A stretch of 60,871 nucleotides of DNA from an uncultured Methanosarcinales archaeon (GTDB taxonomy: Archaea; Nanobdellota; Nanobdellia; Woesearchaeales; GW2011-AR4), in contig CAZTBE010000002.1 of the NCBI GenBank assembly GCA_964611745.1, forward strand, positions 1-60,871, read 5' to 3'. The notes below the pieces were generated by a model. The model had not been told where the DNA came from. It worked only from the letters and a program-made list of their open reading frames with translations, and made no database searches. The position numbers and the translations under genes are program-made. Below, piece after piece: positions 16,700 to 56,967 of this stretch. Numbering within the stretch: position 1 is the stretch's first letter; each line of letters opens with the position of its first letter.

Positions 16700-17920
16700 C
16701 TATGCTATCTTGGGTTCTGGTAAAGGTATTATAAATTTTACTCCCTGATCAGCATATTTTCCTGTTTTTTTTAAAATTTCTTCGGCAAAATTCCATGCAA
16801 GAATTAAAATATAATCTGGTCTTTTCTTCTCTAACATGCTTGAGCTTACAACTGGAATATGCGTTCCTGGTGAATATAAACCTATCTTTAAAGGATTGTC
16901 ATCAACAATATAATCAATAAAATCCCTACCAATATTGCAGAAATTCAGCAATGTAGTTGATTTTGCAGGAGCGCCATACCCAGCAATTGACTTTTTCTGT
17001 GCTTTTATATCCCTGATGTAAGATACTAATCTCTCTTTTACATGATAAACCTTATTTGAGAAATTTTTATAAATTTCTATATCATTGATTCCAATGCCTT
17101 TCTCATATTCCAATGTCTCTTCAACCTCTTTATGAATCTCGTGGTTTCCTTCAGACTTTTTTATAAATACTCTTAAAGAACCCCCGTGGCTGTCTACTCT
17201 TTGAACATCAAATATCTCCATCCTGTGTTTTTTAAAGAAATAACTTAATGAAGTGAGAGTGTAATAAGAAAGATGCTCGTGATATACATTATCAAAAGTC
17301 ATTTTTTCCATAGTGTCTACTAAATACTGGACTTCAATAACAAATATACCATCTTCCTTAAGCAGAGTTTTTACATTGTCTGTAACATTATCAATATCAT
17401 CAATGTGGGCAAAGACGTTATTTGCAGTTACTACATCAGCATGCCCTTTTTTTCCTATAACCCTTTTTACCGCATCATTGTTGAAAAAACCATTTATAGT
17501 TTCAATGCCATCCTGCTCTGCAATTTTCACTAAATTTGCAGCAGGTTCAATACCCATCGTTTGGATTCCTAATTTCTGAAAATTTTTTAGTAAAAGCCCA
17601 TCATTACTTCCAATATCAACAACTAAAGAACCGTTATTTAAATTAAAACAATTGCATATGTCCCTAGCCATTTTAGAAAAATGAATCTTAAAAGTATTTG
17701 ACGTAGACGATACATATATATAATTTTTGAACATCAGTTCCGGAGGCACAACATAAGTCAATTGCACCAACTTGCAATTATCACAGAAAGCTAATTCTAA
17801 AGGATAGGTGTTCTCTTTATTTTCCAATTCTTCTTTTGAAAGAAAACTATTAGCTAAAGGACTTTTCCCCAATGAAAGAAATACCTTTATAGCCTCATTT
17901 CTACAAATTCTGCATATCAT
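16700..17920 (-). CDS. NDP-hexose C-methyltransferase-like SAM enzyme (zinc-ribbon N-terminus)
   Basis: CRICRN...CDNCKLVQL, VDIGSNDG, NVFAHI, HEHLSYYT. Collinear with 10052..11302. Confidence 0.8.
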   Translation of the reverse strand: MICRICRNEAIKVFLSLGKSPLANSFLSKEELENKENTYPLELAFCDNCKLVQLTYVVPPELMFKNYIYVSSTSNTFKIHFSKMARDICNCFNLNNGSLVVDIGSNDGLLLKNFQKLGIQTMGIEPAANLVKIAEQDGIETINGFFNNDAVKRVIGKKGHADVVTANNVFAHIDDIDNVTDNVKTLLKEDGIFVIEVQYLVDTMEKMTFDNVYHEHLSYYTLTSLSYFFKKHRMEIFDVQRVDSHGGSLRVFIKKSEGNHEIHKEVEETLEYEKGIGINDIEIYKNFSNKVYHVKERLVSYIRDIKAQKKSIAGYGAPAKSTTLLNFCNIGRDFIDYIVDDNPLKIGLYSPGTHIPVVSSSMLEKKRPDYILILAWNFAEEILKKTGKYADQGVKFIIPLPEPKIA

Positions 17921-27907: not shown

Positions 27908-28906
27908 TTAAATCAGTTTCTTAACACTATCGACTATTTCATCAATATCCCATTCTGGCGGAATGTCACATTTTGACTTATAGCAGCATACACAACCTTT
28001 TTTTGGGATTATTTTTATTCCCCTGGAATATAATTCAATCTCGTTAGGACTTGTAGGGCAGAAAAACGCAATAATTTTCTTTTTCAATACAATTCCTATG
28101 TGCATTGCAAGGCTGTCTGATGTGATTAAAATATTGCATAGATTCACTAAAGAGGCAAATTCCATTAAGGAATTATCACAGCCAGCATCTATTATCTGTG
28201 TTTTTACTGAGCTTTTTATTTTATTGTTTCTTTCTTTTTCTTCTGGGCCGCCAAAAAGCAACAATTTAACATTTTTTATATTATTGTTTAATTTGTCTAT
28301 TAGCTCTGCAGTTTCTTCTATGCTTAATTTTTTGTCTTCCCAGCGCCCTCCTGCTCCAGTATTGATGCCAATGGCTAAATTCTCATTTTTTATGTTGTTT
28401 TTTTCAGCAAAATTCTTTCCAAATTTTATCTCATCATTATTTAAGATTAATAGGGGTTCCTGCTTTTTATATTGCAAATCAAGAATTTTGTAAATTATTT
28501 CCTGATAAGTCTTTTTATTTTGGGCCTTTAATTCATCTGCTCTTTGCTTTCCAAACTTTGAAATCAAACCTATGTCAAACCATAGTGATGAATTTTCAGT
28601 GTAAATCTTTTTTCCATCTTTTAAATATGCTCCAATAATCTCTTTATGTTTAATTTCAGCAGCAAGCTCGCATGCAATATCCTCATCATCCAGATTTATT
28701 ATTAGATCATACTCTTTGTTTTTTAATTCTTCATCAATTAAATAAATCTTATCAATTAGATTGTTGTTTTTTAGAATATCAAAGGACTCCTTTTTAGTAA
28801 TCCAATCTATTGTACAATTTTCATATTTGGATTTCAATCCATGAAGTATGGAAGTGGTTCTAATGACATCTCCAATTGCTCCAAGCTTTATTATGAGTAT
28901 ATTCAT
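27908..28906 (-). CDS. GT9 family glycosyltransferase (heptosyltransferase-like)
   Basis: ILIIKLGAIGDVIRTT N-terminal motif, SDSLAMHIG, C-terminal Cys cluster CVCCYKSKC. Confidence 0.8.
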   Translation of the reverse strand: MNILIIKLGAIGDVIRTTSILHGLKSKYENCTIDWITKKESFDILKNNNLIDKIYLIDEELKNKEYDLIINLDDEDIACELAAEIKHKEIIGAYLKDGKKIYTENSSLWFDIGLISKFGKQRADELKAQNKKTYQEIIYKILDLQYKKQEPLLILNNDEIKFGKNFAEKNNIKNENLAIGINTGAGGRWEDKKLSIEETAELIDKLNNNIKNVKLLLFGGPEEKERNNKIKSSVKTQIIDAGCDNSLMEFASLVNLCNILITSDSLAMHIGIVLKKKIIAFFCPTSPNEIELYSRGIKIIPKKGCVCCYKSKCDIPPEWDIDEIVDSVKKLI

Positions 28907-29146: not shown

Positions 29147-30859
29147 ATGTGTATGAGGATTAAAAGAAGTTATATTGAAGCAGGTATATTTATTGCAGTT
29201 TATTTATTTGCTATTTATGTATGGACATTGCCTTTCCAGGACAATAGAACTCCTTATGGAGAATGGGATGCTATATCGCATTGGGAACTAGGAGATTTTA
29301 TAGCCCAATATGACCAGACATTTGTATATTTACCTGGTTTCCTTGATTATTCTTATGGGGGAGATAACAATTATAAACCTCACACATTGTGGTATCATCC
29401 ACCTTTCCATACTGATTTTGCCATAATATCTGCATTTTCTAATGATAGGATGGTGCCTATATTCCTTACAAATGCAATATTTGCAAGCGCCATATTGATT
29501 TCGGTTTTTTTTGTCATAAACAGATTGTTTGGGTTTCTGCCAGCGATATTGTCGTCTTTTATGCTTACTTTTTCAATGAGGGATATACTGCCTTACCTGT
29601 GGGGGCAATGGCCTGAGAGGTTTGCCTATGCTTTCATTCCTTTAGTCTTATATTGTTTTTATATGTATTATATCAGTTATTCCAGAGAAAAAAACAAACC
29701 AATTTACTTGTACATAATGTCTCTGCTTCTTGCTATTAATGTGTTTATACATCCATTGGTTTTCTTCCATACTTTAATCGGTATTTTTGTACTGGGTGTA
29801 ACTTTAGCAATAAAACTGAGAAAAATGCCATTTAATCTAAAGCATATAAGCATTTTCTTACTACTTTTTCTGGTCTTGTTTGCAGTCTTCCCTTACCAAA
29901 CCGGCAATGTCATTGTTTCTTTTACCAAAAGCTCTACTCCGGAAGAAAGCAAATACCCATTAATCTCCAGATTACTGCAATGGGCTCCGAACCCCAGGGA
30001 TTTTGTTGGTTCAGTTCCAGGAACATACTTTTCTTTTGAGCAGATGATTGGCTATTGGGGATTTTTGGATGATAGCAAGTCACAAGGAATTAATTCAGAT
30101 TCGCCTTTTTTTAAGAAATTATCCGTAAATATAACAAACCTGCTTTTTATCTTTCTTGTTATCGGCATAGCAATCCTATTTTTAAGAAAAGAACAGAGAG
30201 ATATTTTTCTTTTGGCATGGCTAATTAGTTTATACCTTGTTTTACACAGAGATTTAATCGGAAAATTTACTTTCCTGCACAGATCTCTTTCTGCAACAGC
30301 GCATATATTTATACCAATAATTGTTATTGGAGCACTTTCTATATCTTCACTGATTAAAATACCAAAAATGTATAGATCTTTATTGAAGTATGTGATAGCT
30401 GTTTTAATTGTTGCATTTACACTTATGTATAATATGCCTTTTGCATTCTCTACGCTTGATAATGCTTATAATTCACCTTTAATAAGGCTTAATCCTGCAC
30501 AAATTGAGGTCAGCGAGTGGTTAAAGGATAATATTCCTGAAGACCGCAATGTTTCTATAATAGGAACACCAGAGCAATTAGATAAGAAAGTTTGGTGGAT
30601 GGCCTCTTATTCTCATCGTGTAAGCCATTATTTTGAAGGATTTTTTACATGGTCCTCTGAGGATGAGGAAACTAAACAGAGAATTGCCAGTGGCCACCTG
30701 TTAAGCGATTATGTGGTTTTTGATTACTCTGACATAGCCTTGTTAAGTGACAGGAGTTTTGTTGAACGATGGCTGGAATTTGAGCAACGAAACATGGCAA
30801 ATCATACATTATTGTATAATAAAGATAATATGAAGGTGTATAAATATGAATCTTCTTAA
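29147..30859 (+). CDS. GT-C-type polytopic membrane protein with C-terminal soluble domain (paralogue of 35125..36843)
   Basis: 570 aa. YGEWDAISH loop, WYHPPFH, LWGQWP. After the last TM: EWLKDNIPE...VWWMASYSH. Confidence 0.6.
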   Translation: MCMRIKRSYIEAGIFIAVYLFAIYVWTLPFQDNRTPYGEWDAISHWELGDFIAQYDQTFVYLPGFLDYSYGGDNNYKPHTLWYHPPFHTDFAIISAFSNDRMVPIFLTNAIFASAILISVFFVINRLFGFLPAILSSFMLTFSMRDILPYLWGQWPERFAYAFIPLVLYCFYMYYISYSREKNKPIYLYIMSLLLAINVFIHPLVFFHTLIGIFVLGVTLAIKLRKMPFNLKHISIFLLLFLVLFAVFPYQTGNVIVSFTKSSTPEESKYPLISRLLQWAPNPRDFVGSVPGTYFSFEQMIGYWGFLDDSKSQGINSDSPFFKKLSVNITNLLFIFLVIGIAILFLRKEQRDIFLLAWLISLYLVLHRDLIGKFTFLHRSLSATAHIFIPIIVIGALSISSLIKIPKMYRSLLKYVIAVLIVAFTLMYNMPFAFSTLDNAYNSPLIRLNPAQIEVSEWLKDNIPEDRNVSIIGTPEQLDKKVWWMASYSHRVSHYFEGFFTWSSEDEETKQRIASGHLLSDYVVFDYSDIALLSDRSFVERWLEFEQRNMANHTLLYNKDNMKVYKYESS

Positions 30860-53543: not shown

Positions 53544-54447
53544 TTTCCCACCCATTTTCATCTAACCAATTAAAATAATCTTTAATACTTTCTTTTAATG
53601 GCCATTTTGCCTTAAAGCCAAGAATATTTTCTGCTTTTGTTGTGTCTGCCTGTGTATCAGCTTGGTAAGTTTTAGGATCATAAGGCATGTCAAAATATTC
53701 TGTTTTGAGATTTTTTCCTAAAACATCATTTAAAACTTTAATTAAATCATTGAAGGTTGTTGCAATGCCTGTTCCTACATTATAAATTCCGCTTTTTGCA
53801 TTTACTGCTTTGATAGTAGCATTGACAGCATCTTTGACATAAATATTGTCGCGTTTTTGCTCGCCAAGTTTAAAAATTCTTGGATTTTTTCCAGCTTTAA
53901 TTTGTTTGCCTAAATGATATATCATAGATGCTGGACGTCCTTTATACGCTTCTCTAGGGCCGAAAACATTAAAGTATCTTAATCCTACAATGTGCATGTC
54001 GTCAAATAATTTTTCTGCCATATTATCCATTTCTAGTTTTGATTTTCCATAAGCACTTAGAATTTCTTTTTTCTGGCCTTCTTTCATTGGAACTTGCCCA
54101 TTACCATATAACCCTGCTGTTGATGCGTAAATTAATTTGGCATTGTTGTTTTTTGCAAGCTCTATTATATTTTTGAAACCTTGTATATTCTTATTGTAAG
54201 TTTCCTCATCATTTGGATATCTTGGATCAGTTATTGCAGCTTCATGGAAAATCACATCAAATTTTTCATTAAGCTCAAATGATTCTGAAACATCTAATTC
54301 AATAATTTTACCTTTAAAACCATTTAAATTATTTTTATTTCCAGAATTTAAATTGTCAACTATTGTGACTTCATGCCCTTGTTTTTCTAGTTCTAAAGCT
54401 AAATTAGAGCCTATAAAACCTGCACCACCTGTTACTAAGCATTTCAT
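53536..54447 (-). CDS. hldD: ADP-L-glycero-D-manno-heptose 6-epimerase-like SDR
   Basis: VTGGAGFIGSNL, HEAAITD, YGKSKLEMD. 303 aa. The start overlaps the cupin stop (ATGA). Confidence 0.75.
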   Translation of the reverse strand: MKCLVTGGAGFIGSNLALELEKQGHEVTIVDNLNSGNKNNLNGFKGKIIELDVSESFELNEKFDVIFHEAAITDPRYPNDEETYNKNIQGFKNIIELAKNNNAKLIYASTAGLYGNGQVPMKEGQKKEILSAYGKSKLEMDNMAEKLFDDMHIVGLRYFNVFGPREAYKGRPASMIYHLGKQIKAGKNPRIFKLGEQKRDNIYVKDAVNATIKAVNAKSGIYNVGTGIATTFNDLIKVLNDVLGKNLKTEYFDMPYDPKTYQADTQADTTKAENILGFKAKWPLKESIKDYFNWLDENGWENE

Positions 54448-54803
54448 TTTGGCAGCTCCAACTTGTCTAAATCAACTTTTCCTGATAATTCATCGCGGTA
54501 TGAATCAGAATCTTCATGATGTGTTGAGAATTCTATTATTTCACTGGGTTCTAAGCCTGTAAAGCGGTGTTTTGTATTTGGTGTTATAAGGATAGAATGC
54601 CCAGGAAGCATTATCTGTTTTTTATTGTCAGTTTCCATTAAGACCTTGCCTGCTAGTATATAGAATGTTTCATCCTTGTTTTTGTGGTAATGCATTGAGC
54701 ATCTGAAACCTTTATTTAGGATTAACTTTTTTCCGCAATAATTTCTATTGGCAATTATTTCTTCATGACCCCATACTTTCTTAACTATCTTATGTTCTGT
54801 CAT
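54444..54803 (-). CDS. cupin, phosphomannose-isomerase-type (candidate sedoheptulose-7-phosphate isomerase)
   Basis: 119 aa. WGHEE, SMHYHKNKDETFYILAG, TKHRF. First gene of the heptose operon. Confidence 0.6.
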   Translation of the reverse strand: MTEHKIVKKVWGHEEIIANRNYCGKKLILNKGFRCSMHYHKNKDETFYILAGKVLMETDNKKQIMLPGHSILITPNTKHRFTGLEPSEIIEFSTHHEDSDSYRDELSGKVDLDKLELPK

Positions 54804-54853
54804 ATTAGTATGAATAGTTCATACTTCTAGTATATAAATGTTTCGTTATTGTA

Positions 54854-54963
54854 CGTGCCCGTACAACAGCGTATTGGGGTGTCTCAGACACCCCGAGACC
54901 GCAACATCAGGAGCTGTCTCGGATCGTGCAGTGCGAAGCACTGTACACTAGTGTGCGGGTACG
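54854..54963 (+). ncRNA. candidate structured RNA or structured DNA element E (four-way junction)
   Basis: Closing stem 54854-54865 with 54952-54963 (12 bp, 2 G-U). Hairpin GGGGTGTC/GACACCCC (54876-54894). Hairpin GAGAC/GTCTC (54895-54920). Hairpin GTGCAGTGC/GCACTGTAC (54926-54946, 1 G-U). The wobble pairs work only on the + strand. No known RNA family recognised. Confidence 0.3.
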
Positions 54964-55014
54964 CATAAATAGAAAAATATATAAAGTATGAACTTATACT
55001 ACTATTTTATACCT

Positions 55015-55764
55015 ATGACTAAACCTAAAATCGCAATAAGTCTGGATAAAAGCCTGCTTAATCTTGTAGACAGCAAGGTGGACGGTTCTGTAATAAGGTC
55101 CAGAAGCCAGGCAATGGAGTTTTTTCTGAAAAAAGGTCTGCAGGAGCAGTCTATCAATACAGCTGTTTTACTGATAAAAGGAGAGCACCAGAAAAATTTG
55201 TTAAAGAAACTGAAAGGAAAATCATTATTAAAAAATCAATTAGAATTTTTTGTCAAAAATGGGATAAATAATGTATACATTGTTACGCAGCATACTAAAA
55301 ATATTAATTTGTTATTAAATGAAATTTCTGATGCGAAAATTAATGTTGAAGTAGTTGAGACAAATGCTAAGGGAAATGCAGAGGCCTTGCAATCTGTCAA
55401 AGAAAAAATAAAAAATAGCTTTATTGTAATGTCAGGAGACACGTATAATAATTTTGATCTGTTGAAGATGATAAAAAAGCATCTGGAATTGGATAAAATG
55501 ACTACAATGGGATTAATGACTAGGGAGAAAATCAGCGGCTATGGAACTGCAATCTTAGATGGGGATCTTATTGTTGATTTCCAGGAAAAACCAAAACAAA
55601 GCTCTACGAATATTGTCAATGCTGGGATTTATATCTTCAAACCAGAAGTTTTTGAGCTGTTTGAGAATGCCAATAGTTTAGAAAAAGATTTGTTTCCTAA
55701 ACTTGCAAGATTAAAGCAGCTTATTGGGTTTTTTACGTATGGAGAATATGAGCATTTAGAGTGA
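55015..55764 (+). CDS. ribbon-helix-helix (CopG-like) domain fused to a degenerate sugar nucleotidyltransferase-like domain
   Basis: The ORF opens at ATG 54988, but the TATA-like box at 54975-54986 favours ATG 55015. KIAISLDKSLLNLVD...RSRSQAMEFFLKKGL fits beta-alpha-alpha RHH. The NTP_transferase-like core keeps SGDTY, EKP and NAGIY but has LLIKGEHQKNL where GGxGTRL is expected. Confidence 0.65.
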   Translation: MTKPKIAISLDKSLLNLVDSKVDGSVIRSRSQAMEFFLKKGLQEQSINTAVLLIKGEHQKNLLKKLKGKSLLKNQLEFFVKNGINNVYIVTQHTKNINLLLNEISDAKINVEVVETNAKGNAEALQSVKEKIKNSFIVMSGDTYNNFDLLKMIKKHLELDKMTTMGLMTREKISGYGTAILDGDLIVDFQEKPKQSSTNIVNAGIYIFKPEVFELFENANSLEKDLFPKLARLKQLIGFFTYGEYEHLE

Positions 55765-56967
55765 TTACCTCTTTCTTTTTTTCATAACCTTATCAACCAA
55801 AGAAGTAACATCATCAACCTGTATCCTTTTTACACATGCATTTTCCATGCCGTGCTTACATTCACCAACTTCACCTTTATGGACATTTATGCATGCTTTT
55901 TGAAAAGCAAGCGGCACACTACGTGCGAGGTGGGATTTTTTGTAGATAGAATAATTATTTTTTCCGAATGGTGCAAATCTTACTGGCAGGTTGCATCCAA
56001 ATAAACCAATTGTTTTTACATTTTGAGCAGCTGCAACGTGCATTGGCCCTGAATCATTGCCAATAAATAATCTACATAAGGAAATCAGATAAAACATTTC
56101 TCTAACATTTATTTCTCCAGAAACATTAAAAGAATTATTTTTACCTACGGAGTTGGTACCGGATTTTGTCCGAGTATTTTCAATTAAATTTTGCAATTCG
56201 TCGATTAAATTTTTTTCTTTATCATTTCCAATTAAAAATATTTTTGCATTATACTTTTTTATTAAATTGTCTGCAAGTTTTGCAAACTTTTCTTTTGGCC
56301 ACATCCTTGATTTTGCACTTTCAGCAGCTCCAACACCAAAGCCAACAAGAAAATTTTTTTTCTCAATATTATATTTTTTTAATAAGCTATCGACATTTTT
56401 TTTATCGTTTTTTGAATAATTTAATTGAGATAATTTTTCAACTCTTTTTTTAATTCCTAATGGCTTTAATAAATCTAAAAATGTATAAACAACGTGCTGC
56501 CTATCATTATAATCAACTTTGTCAGTGTACAAATTTGACCTTATTCCATGAGAAAATCCAATTCTGCGCTTTCCTGTAAAAAATGCTATTATGGATGATA
56601 TGTTGAGGTATTCTTCCATGTCTATTGCAAGATCATATTTTTTGAAATTAAGTGACATAAAAAGTTTTATAGAAATTGGATTTAATTTCAGAACTTTTAC
56701 ATCATTAATATATTTATTCTTATAATAGACTTCCTTGTTTCTTCCAGTCACTAAAATATCTATATTGCTTTTTTTATACTGCTTTCTTAACACTTCTATT
56801 GCTGGGAGTGTTAATATTGTTTCGCCTATGCCCCATAACTGGATAATCAATATTTTATTATATTTATGGATTTTTTTATATCTGAGAAGCTTGTTTATTG
56901 ATAGAAATGAACATAATAAGGAACCAGCATATTTATCCAGAAATTTTATTAGATTAACGGATACCAT
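55765..56967 (-). CDS. GT9 family glycosyltransferase (heptosyltransferase-like)
   Basis: ILIIQLWGIGETILTLP, GNDSGPMHVAAA, C-terminal Cys cluster. Its stop codon abuts the stop of the convergent gene. Confidence 0.8.
   Translation of the reverse strand: MVSVNLIKFLDKYAGSLLCSFLSINKLLRYKKIHKYNKILIIQLWGIGETILTLPAIEVLRKQYKKSNIDILVTGRNKEVYYKNKYINDVKVLKLNPISIKLFMSLNFKKYDLAIDMEEYLNISSIIAFFTGKRRIGFSHGIRSNLYTDKVDYNDRQHVVYTFLDLLKPLGIKKRVEKLSQLNYSKNDKKNVDSLLKKYNIEKKNFLVGFGVGAAESAKSRMWPKEKFAKLADNLIKKYNAKIFLIGNDKEKNLIDELQNLIENTRTKSGTNSVGKNNSFNVSGEINVREMFYLISLCRLFIGNDSGPMHVAAAQNVKTIGLFGCNLPVRFAPFGKNNYSIYKKSHLARSVPLAFQKACINVHKGEVGECKHGMENACVKRIQVDDVTSLVDKVMKKRKR

Follow-up and report, generated by a model that had tools for sequence, protein, structure and literature searches.

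A GC-rich palindromic insertion between divergent genes of a Woesearchaeota genome, probably one copy of a small palindromic repeat family

Element E is a palindromic DNA segment of 118 nucleotides that lies between two outward-facing promoter motifs in the analysed window, the whole stretch of 60,871 nucleotides from an uncultured marine DPANN archaeon. E is an insertion that is absent from relatives, consists of two half-units in inverted orientation and has a second copy, named E2, in the same genome. E probably belongs to a family of small palindromic repeats, of the MITE or REPIN kind, one copy of which was inserted in the gap between the two promoters. An earlier note made from the sequence had interpreted E as an unclassified small structured RNA or a regulatory DNA cruciform, and the results described below support that interpretation in part.

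Fold and composition of element E

The features of E are as follows; none of them is assigned to a strand.

54849–54966: element E, a palindromic insertion of 118 nt with 57% GC, delimited by the break of homology to loci L096 and L097
54849–54866: terminal local hairpin TTGTACG-TGCC-CGTACAA, a rival of the closing stem (DNA fold, inverted repeat I2)
54854–54865: 5' arm of the closing stem and terminal inverted repeat; the same 23-mer with two substitutions is found at both ends of E2
54876–54894: hairpin 1 (arm hairpin), 8 bp with loop TCA (RNA fold)
54895–54920: hairpin 2 (centre of the palindrome), GAGAC...GTCTC, 5+2 bp; 16 bases are absent from E2
54926–54946: hairpin 3 (arm hairpin), 9 bp with loop GAA; a GAA-loop hairpin is found at the corresponding place in E2
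54952–54963: 3' arm of the closing stem and terminal inverted repeat, which aligns with the 3' repeat of E2

The earlier note had described a 12-bp closing stem (54854–54865 with 54952–54963) around three hairpins, and folding of the region 54845–54975 confirms all of these coordinates. The fold contains 36 pairs, 33 of which are Watson–Crick pairs and three of which are G–T pairs on the + strand (54857/54960, 54862/54955 and 54928/54944). The terminal inverted repeat of 12 bp includes two G–T mismatches, and the family terminal repeat TACGTGCCCGTACAACAGCGTAT corresponds to 54852–54874 in E. The minimum free energy of the + strand RNA is −60.9 kcal/mol as compared with −37.6 ± 3.9 kcal/mol for 200 dinucleotide shuffles (z = −6.06), none of which is as stable as E. 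E is the strongest GC island in the window, which has 32.5% GC, and shows the highest stability among about 4,000 sliding 120-nt segments of the window after regression on GC. E has no reading frame open for more than 57 codons in any frame and no protein match in a database of 5.8 billion sequences.

The three G–T pairs had been taken as evidence that only a + strand RNA is compatible with the fold. The three pairs are indeed all G–T on the + strand, but they are weak evidence for a strand because the fold of the minus strand has almost the same stability (−54.3 kcal/mol, z = −5.23). For transition mismatches, a named strand would carry all three as G–T with a probability of 1 in 8.

An alternative explanation is that E and E2 are lineage-specific small structured RNA genes, with E on the + strand, that act in trans or on their neighbours. 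This is consistent with the very stable fold (z = −6.1), with the wobble pairs that are all G–U on the + strand, and with a GC-rich island in an AT-rich archaeal genome, which is a classic sign of a structural RNA. However, the minus strand of E folds nearly equally and E2 is a full palindrome that is equal on both strands, and the hairpins are near-perfect triloop hairpins that lack the internal loops usual for functional RNAs. Together with the promoter, distribution and variant data given in the following sections, such RNA genes are considered unlikely.

When DNA parameters are used, both single strands of E are far more stable than shuffled sequences (z = −5.2 and −4.6). The four-way junction is not the minimum-energy fold under these parameters, and the terminal hairpin competes with the closing stem.

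Flanking genes, promoters and operator-like sites

The genes and predicted control sites around E are as follows.

54444–54803, minus strand: cupin gene, the first gene of a sugar-nucleotide operon (Pfam)
54807–54825, no strand assigned: operator-like palindrome AGTATGAATAGTTCATACT over the predicted cupin transcript start, present in most of 80 related loci
54831–54845, minus strand: cupin core promoter, with a TATA box at 54831–54838 and a BRE-like CGAAACA at 54839–54845, conserved in relatives
54969–54985, plus strand: NTP-transferase core promoter, with a purine-rich BRE-like element at 54969–54977 and TATATAAA at 54978–54985, conserved in relatives
54985–55012, no strand assigned: second operator-like site AGTATGAA...TTTTATAC over the predicted NTP-transferase transcript start
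55015–55764, plus strand: NTP-transferase gene with an RHH-like N-terminus, 249 aa (Pfam)

As the earlier note had placed it, E lies in a control region, flanked by a heptose-type sugar operon and the NTP-transferase gene. In the minus-strand operon, the cupin gene is followed by genes for an epimerase, a PfkB kinase, a HAD phosphatase and a cytidylyltransferase-like protein (Pfam), and on the plus strand the NTP-transferase gene is followed by a gene for a family-9 glycosyltransferase. The gene downstream of E had been regarded as an RHH fusion. It is an NTP-transferase gene with an RHH-like N-terminus, but the match to RHH_1 is weak (E-value 0.018) and falls below the Pfam cut-off. Homologues of the NTP-transferase carry the names Woesearchaeota, Nanoarchaeota or 'archaeon'. 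An STT3/AglB gene is located directly past the end of the window. Most contigs with the last genes of the window stop 400–1,350 nt past the glycosyltransferase gene, inside STT3/AglB (L120 and L129–L136), and the right-end region near this gene is probably hypervariable between strains.

Since the source is a marine DPANN archaeon, archaeal promoter rules were used. Bell and co-workers are said to have found in 1999 that the BRE upstream of the TATA box fixes the direction of transcription. Since the BRE-like element lies on the E side of each TATA box, both core promoters are predicted to face outward, away from E. The TATATAAA boxes at 54831–54838 and 54978–54985 are identical. The cupin core promoter is 28 nt from the cupin ATG at 54803, and the NTP-transferase core promoter, in which ATAGAAAAA lies beside the box at 54978–54985, is 30 nt upstream of the ATG at 55015. 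The NTP-transferase transcript is predicted to start at about 55009, 4–6 nt ahead of this ATG, and the cupin transcript near 54807 on the minus strand. A longer reading of the gene (258 aa) begins at 54988, 3 nt past the TATA box. Since the TATA box overlaps this alternative and most contigs call the 249-aa form, 55015 is likely to be the true start.

It had also been proposed that the TATATAAA box at 54831–54838 drives E in addition to the cupin operon. The box is present, and together with a CGAAA BRE-like element on the minus strand that is conserved in relatives it is predicted to serve the cupin gene, but its driving a + strand small RNA is unsupported. This is because both BRE-like elements point outward, a transcription start about 24 nt from either TATA box towards E would be within the closing stem, and inspection of the sequence detects neither a TATA box within E nor a T-run terminator after E on either strand. 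Thus, E appears to have no promoter and terminator of its own, which argues against small RNA genes; their transcription would have to come from weak bidirectional activity of a TATA box or from an unrecognised promoter. E is located upstream of the BRE and TATA box of the NTP-transferase gene and so does not have the position of a riboswitch or 5' leader.

In most of the 80 Woesearchaeota loci (L016–L095), each of the two divergent genes has the operator-like palindrome AGTATGAAnnnTTCATAC(T) at its predicted transcript start, and the AGTATGAATAGTTCATACT palindrome pairs as an inverted repeat with 54984–55004. The operator-like palindrome is likely to be the putative target of the RHH-like N-terminus of the NTP-transferase, which would then be autoregulatory. 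The distance between the operator palindrome and the gene is 208 nt in the window as compared with about 115 nt in most of the 80 loci, and the spacing between the operator-like sites is 178 bp as compared with 86 bp in close relatives. These distances bear on another alternative, namely that E is a DNA-level regulatory insert, a cruciform-forming spacer or insulator, that alters the coupling of the divergent promoters by the operator and the RHH-like protein. The position of E exactly between both core promoters, the increase in spacing of the AGTATGAA...TTCATAC sites from the conserved 86 bp to 178 bp and the stable folding of the single strands under DNA parameters are in agreement with such a role. 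However, preservation of helical phase was considered and rejected, as the operator-like sites are moved apart by about 92 bp, or 8.8 turns, and the phase is broken, and E2 lies in an unrelated gene pair. A regulatory insert is considered improbable, and the insertion of a repeat copy remains the preferred explanation.

Absence of E from related loci

The spacer was compared with 80 related loci from species-representative genomes and with further metagenome contigs. Its order from the cupin ATG onward is conserved in the relatives. First comes the operator-like palindrome AGTATGAAnnnTTCATACT, then a TATA box with TTTCG after it, which on the minus strand is read as CGAAA plus TATA. An AT-rich stretch of about 26 bases separates this unit from A(C/T)AGAAAA and its TATA box on the plus strand, beyond which lie a further AGTATGAA...TCATAC site and the NTP-transferase ATG. 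The sides of the spacer around the gap of about 26 bases are almost base-for-base conserved. These AT-rich bases correspond to the 118-nt E (54849–54966) in the window, and homology to L096 and L097 ends at 54848 and restarts at 54965–54967 (at 54967 for L096 by BLAST).

L096, which is 95% identical in protein and 88% identical in nucleotide sequence, has the spacer without E. The same is true of other relatives, with NTP-transferase identities of 91% (L019), 90% (L021 and L097) and 87% (L023 and L026). Thus, all six of these loci have empty sites, indicating an insertion polymorphism. Since these close relatives keep the spacer without E, E is a recent lineage-specific insertion or replacement, and its absence next to 95% identical neighbours counts against small RNA genes.

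E does not purely interrupt the ancestral spacer but replaces 26 nt of it. There is no clear target-site duplication: TA is found at 54847–54848 and 54966–54967, but this is common by chance in AT-rich DNA, and E2 shows no evident direct repeat in its flanks. Covariance models R1 and R3, described below, detected no E-like sequence in 1.25–1.3 Mb from the 80 related loci. The earlier note had looked to covariation in homologous spacers; none of the 80 related loci carries E, and so there is no between-genome covariation for E.

A second copy and the half-unit architecture

Covariance model R1 was built from E alone and run on contigs reaching 10 kb past each end of the window. It detected E2 at L119:3024–3130 with a score of 44.7 bits (E-value about 1e-8). 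E2 shares this contig with a copy of E and is 12.2 kb apart from it, which corresponds to about 67.2 kb in window coordinates and is outside the window; no second copy of E is present inside the 60,871-nt window. E2 is known from this single contig (JGI 3300048645, Ga0496646_0000633), where the two divergent genes around it, which are unrelated to the pair at E, are separated by 292 nt. The family thus has two copies, E and E2, in about 81 kb of this genome. A joint E/E2 model, R3, matches E and E2 only in 1.3 Mb, and TACGNNCCCGTAMAACAGYGTAT is a motif for the family. According to the earlier note, its interpretation would be refuted if the region were simply another copy of a genomic palindromic repeat. 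Since the diverged E2 is found 12 kb away in the same genome, E is such a copy.

Each terminal 23-mer of E2 has two differences from TACGTGCCCGTACAACAGCGTAT of E (21 of the 23 bases are shared), and the two copies also align at the linker, at the arm hairpin with its 3-nt loop and at the central CCGAG...CTCGG. E2 is palindromic over nearly its whole length: its 50-nt arms show 76% complementarity and include a terminal repeat of 23–27 nt, and the two strands fold equally well (−52.9 and −55.2 kcal/mol, z = −6.2 and −6.7). Compared with E2, the centre of E is longer by 16 bases and the 3' arm of E has diverged.

E and E2 each consist of two half-units in inverted orientation. A half-unit is made of a terminal hairpin (7 bp), a linker ACAGYGTAT, an arm hairpin of 8–9 bp that closes a 3-nt loop, and one half of the central hairpin. 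Alignment of the four half-units (A9) gives a mean column identity of 77%, and in their local hairpins 88% of the cells are paired and four pairs are changed on both sides. The terminal local hairpin of E (54849–54866) shows compensatory changes in the half-units of E2, as in TTGTACG/CGTACAA compared with TTTTACG/CGTAAAA, and pairing in the E2 homologues of hairpin 1 is preserved through double changes; a further example of a double change is GGGGTGTC/GACACCCC compared with GGGCTATC/GATAGCCC. The covariation score of the half-units is reached by no more than 5 of 500 shuffles and, coming from four related sequences, is suggestive of kept pairing. The covariation count for the whole element, obtained from three distinct sequences, is no higher than that of shuffles.

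The preservation of local hairpins by compensatory changes between half-units would also be expected of small RNA genes. More generally, hairpin-preserving change may reflect selection on the folded single strand, either DNA during transposition or RNA, or may be compensatory evolution as for REPINs. In quasi-palindromes, template-switch correction can yield hairpin-preserving change without selection, and it is possible that the changes in the half-units arose in this way.

Variation among strains that carry E

More than 20 independent contigs, drawn from TARA, JGI, ENA, NCBI and Logan assemblies, agree exactly in the 211-nt spacer that contains E, and therefore E is not an assembly artefact. 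Position 54971, beside E, is the exact start of three short contigs from different assemblers, as an artefact would allow, but with the identical spacer in so many contigs, and with none of 200 shuffles folding as well, an artefact or a chance palindrome is hardly credible. The three contigs (L001, L002 and L005, from assemblies with different k-mer sizes) all begin just outside E. Their shared start points to a second left-hand context at that junction in those samples, perhaps an allele without E.

The sole variant of E found in more than one contig is G54878A (L104 and L003), which converts a G–C pair of hairpin 1 to A–C on the plus strand and to G–U on the minus strand. Since pairing survives only on the minus strand, this variant opposes the strand argument drawn from the G–T pairs, and it counts against an RNA encoded on the + strand. 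L003, which has low coverage, has one additional stem-breaking change in E; otherwise the strains that carry E are identical.

The flanking genes of L104 and L114 differ from those of the window by roughly 5–8%, whereas a block of about 1 kb with E and the NTP-transferase gene is nearly identical to the window in both contigs (54796–55874 and 54631–55604). This block looks as if an allele had spread, in agreement with a DNA-level regulatory role of E, but the mosaic identity is explicable by ordinary recombination. As a recombination mosaic, the block is uninformative about constraint on E.

The exact cupin and NTP-transferase proteins are deposited at NCBI as MDP7244668.1 and MDP7244667.1 from a MAG named 'Flavobacteriales bacterium'. 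Since all relatives are Woesearchaeota or Nanoarchaeota, the contig in this MAG is probably mis-binned.

Searches for known families

Rfam 15 gave no match for E when the whole window was searched at gathering thresholds, and a search of the local 400 nt with E-values up to 10 gave a single meaningless match (E-value 3.3). The scan that the earlier note had called for thus assigns E to no family, so that E is unclassified, as had been stated, but its reading as an RNA gene is unsupported. E is not a tRNA, again as had been stated: tRNA, intron-containing tRNA and tmRNA are ruled out by ARAGORN, which found nothing with or without introns. Small RNA genes thus find no support from Rfam or tRNA matches. 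E has the stability of a structured RNA but neither membership of a described family nor conservation and covariation on one strand.

Several other candidates were rejected. There is no Rfam match even at E-values up to 10 to a 5S rRNA, a four-way-junction ribozyme or an rRNA fragment. The terminal boxes RYYYAAC and GTTRRRY of an integron attC site are absent by eye, the T-loop motif of split or permuted tRNA halves, as in Nanoarchaeum, is absent, and the closing stem has no bulges, which excludes a bulge-helix-bulge splice motif.

A metagenome scan with the arms of E and any interior, from which the known flank was excluded, gave two chance matches in GC-rich DNA; the arms are specific for E, and E2 itself would not match them. 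Nothing related to E was found in viral contigs, where a scan for shared repeats gave chance matches only, and phage and plasmid collections contain no match. Six-frame peptides of E, used as a probe for spurious ORFs over hidden copies, found nothing. The E family is therefore new with respect to Rfam and the viral, phage and plasmid collections searched, although its kind (MITE or REPIN) is known. In common with MITEs, E is short and non-coding, has terminal inverted repeats and has empty sites in relatives. In common with REPIN or BIME doublets, it has inverted half-units with palindromes of their own and compensatory pairing, as judged from four sequences.

Other palindromic insertions at the same site and in the window

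Some 70 related loci include about 17 in which the spacer is expanded at the site of E. Those expansions that were examined prove to be palindromic or hairpin-rich insertions of unrelated sequence, two kinds of which are themselves repeated. One of them, family X, is unrelated to E and is a GC-rich structured repeat of about 115 nt in the same promoter gap of L064 and L066, two Nanoarchaeota MAGs. Its copies are as follows.

L066:9832–9948: family X copy
L064:9824–9944: family X copy
L064:5944–6059, plus strand: family X copy
L064:6060–6172, minus strand: family X copy

In family X, the core ATGGCGGCAGACGG...GTCTGCGCCAT is conserved and the outer stems covary, with compensatory changes in 15 of 37 predicted pairs. 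The family has no Rfam match and was found in L064 and L066 only. The second kind is the insertion of L018 (L018:3656–3840), which recurs at L047:5706–5873 and L043:10762–10874.

Insertions of many sizes that are unrelated to one another thus occupy the same site in other lineages, which fits tolerance of the site better than design and argues against E as a regulatory insert. A tolerant landing site is consistent with the preferred explanation, the insertion of a repeat copy.

Further unrelated hairpin-rich insertions lie in or beside the same spacer at L025:9877–9985 and L089:9808–9935 and in L028, L071 and L073. The L089 insertion has the ends GAAAAACCAC...GTGGTTTTTC, like the outer stem of family X. 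A repeat pair resembling these ends is present in a viral contig of 33% GC (L111:3607–3721), and a search of viral contigs with the family-X-type repeat GAAAAACCAC gave three matches.

Two other elements lie within the window itself. The segment 18021–18155 is bounded by a closing stem AGCAAAUGACAC.../...GUGUCAUUUGCU and has three inner hairpins (−52.8 kcal/mol, z = −7.1, 38% GC). It is unrelated in sequence to E and sits between divergent genes at 16700–17920 (minus strand) and about 18136 (plus strand). The segment 28975–29090, of about 115 nt, has an 18-nt terminal inverted repeat (ATTAAGCTAAGCTATGCC / GGCATAGCTTGGCTTTAT) and sits between divergent genes at 27908–28906 (minus strand) and 29147–30859 (plus strand).

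In a survey of prokaryotic MITEs, the median length was 104 bp and about 89% lay between genes (PMC11602168). DPANN MITE densities are among the highest in archaea, with 105 per Mb in one Woesearchaea genome, and MITE GC usually follows host GC (PMC11602168).

A plausible model for E

In the proposed model, E would be a REPIN-like doublet in which the inverted half-units are joined at the central CCGAG...CTCGG hairpin. Within one narrow Woesearchaeota lineage, such a mobile doublet would have been inserted between the cupin and NTP-transferase promoters. Compact genomes offer few harmless landing places, and the gap between outward promoters would be one of them, where the insertion could be neutral. 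The 'four-way junction' would then be the appearance that a nested palindrome takes when a single strand folds, and E would most likely not be transcribed as a gene of its own.

Several observations stand against a repeat copy. Two copies are known, with E2 on one contig, although this count refers to about 81 kb of the genome; E replaces 26 nt of the spacer and shows no clear target-site duplication; and neither a transposase nor an autonomous partner was detected in the window and 10 kb on each side. The GC content of E (57% versus 32.5%) is unusual for a MITE and typical of a structural RNA. Instead of neutral decay, selection acting on a folded strand could account for the compensatory changes in the hairpins.

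A more far-reaching proposal is that the E family is an archaeal counterpart of REPINs with selected hairpins and an unknown, possibly domesticated, transposase, or else a structure-dependent module, for instance a DNA four-way junction or a short RNA, by which divergent promoters in the cell-surface glycosylation islands of DPANN archaea are rewired. This proposal is regarded as doubtful. If E is a repeat copy, it is an ordinary selfish or neutral insertion, and a GC-rich, very stable fold is insufficient to call an RNA gene in AT-rich DPANN genomes. It would also add an undescribed palindromic family, along with several others nearby, to archaea reported to be unusually rich in MITEs, and would show that insertions recurrently land between back-to-back promoters. 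Should selection lie behind the hairpin-preserving changes, the E family would offer a tractable archaeal example of structure-dependent mobile DNA.

Comparison with known systems

Klein, Misulovin and Eddy reportedly described GC-rich islands of structural RNA in AT-rich archaea in 2002. E shares with these a sharp GC island and a very stable fold, but the archaeal RNAs are conserved across species and have their own promoters, neither of which applies to E.

AT-rich fungal mitochondrial genomes contain mobile GC clusters and double-hairpin elements, mostly of 30–60 bp. Like E, the GC clusters are GC-rich palindromes in the intergenic regions of an AT-rich genome and vary between strains, whereas they differ from E in host and scale and are mostly shorter. 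They are not known to be related to E in sequence.

MITEs, such as the Correia elements of Neisseria and archaeal MITEs (PMC11602168), resemble E in being non-coding elements of about 100–120 bp with terminal inverted repeats that lie between genes. They likewise show presence or absence between close relatives and more than one copy per genome, and Correia elements are also found at promoters. In contrast, E has two known copies, no clear target-site duplication and no known partner transposase. MITE GC usually tracks the host, whereas the GC content of E is far higher than that of its host and its hairpins show compensatory change.

REPINs and BIMEs are reportedly doublets of REP palindromes that are mobilised by RAYT transposases in bacteria, an account associated with Bertels and Rainey in 2011. 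REPINs are bacterial, are present in tens to hundreds of copies along with a single-copy RAYT gene, and are unrelated to E in sequence. However, REPINs and BIMEs share with E an intergenic location, inverted half-units with palindromes of their own, a hairpin of about 100 nt and compensatory pairing.
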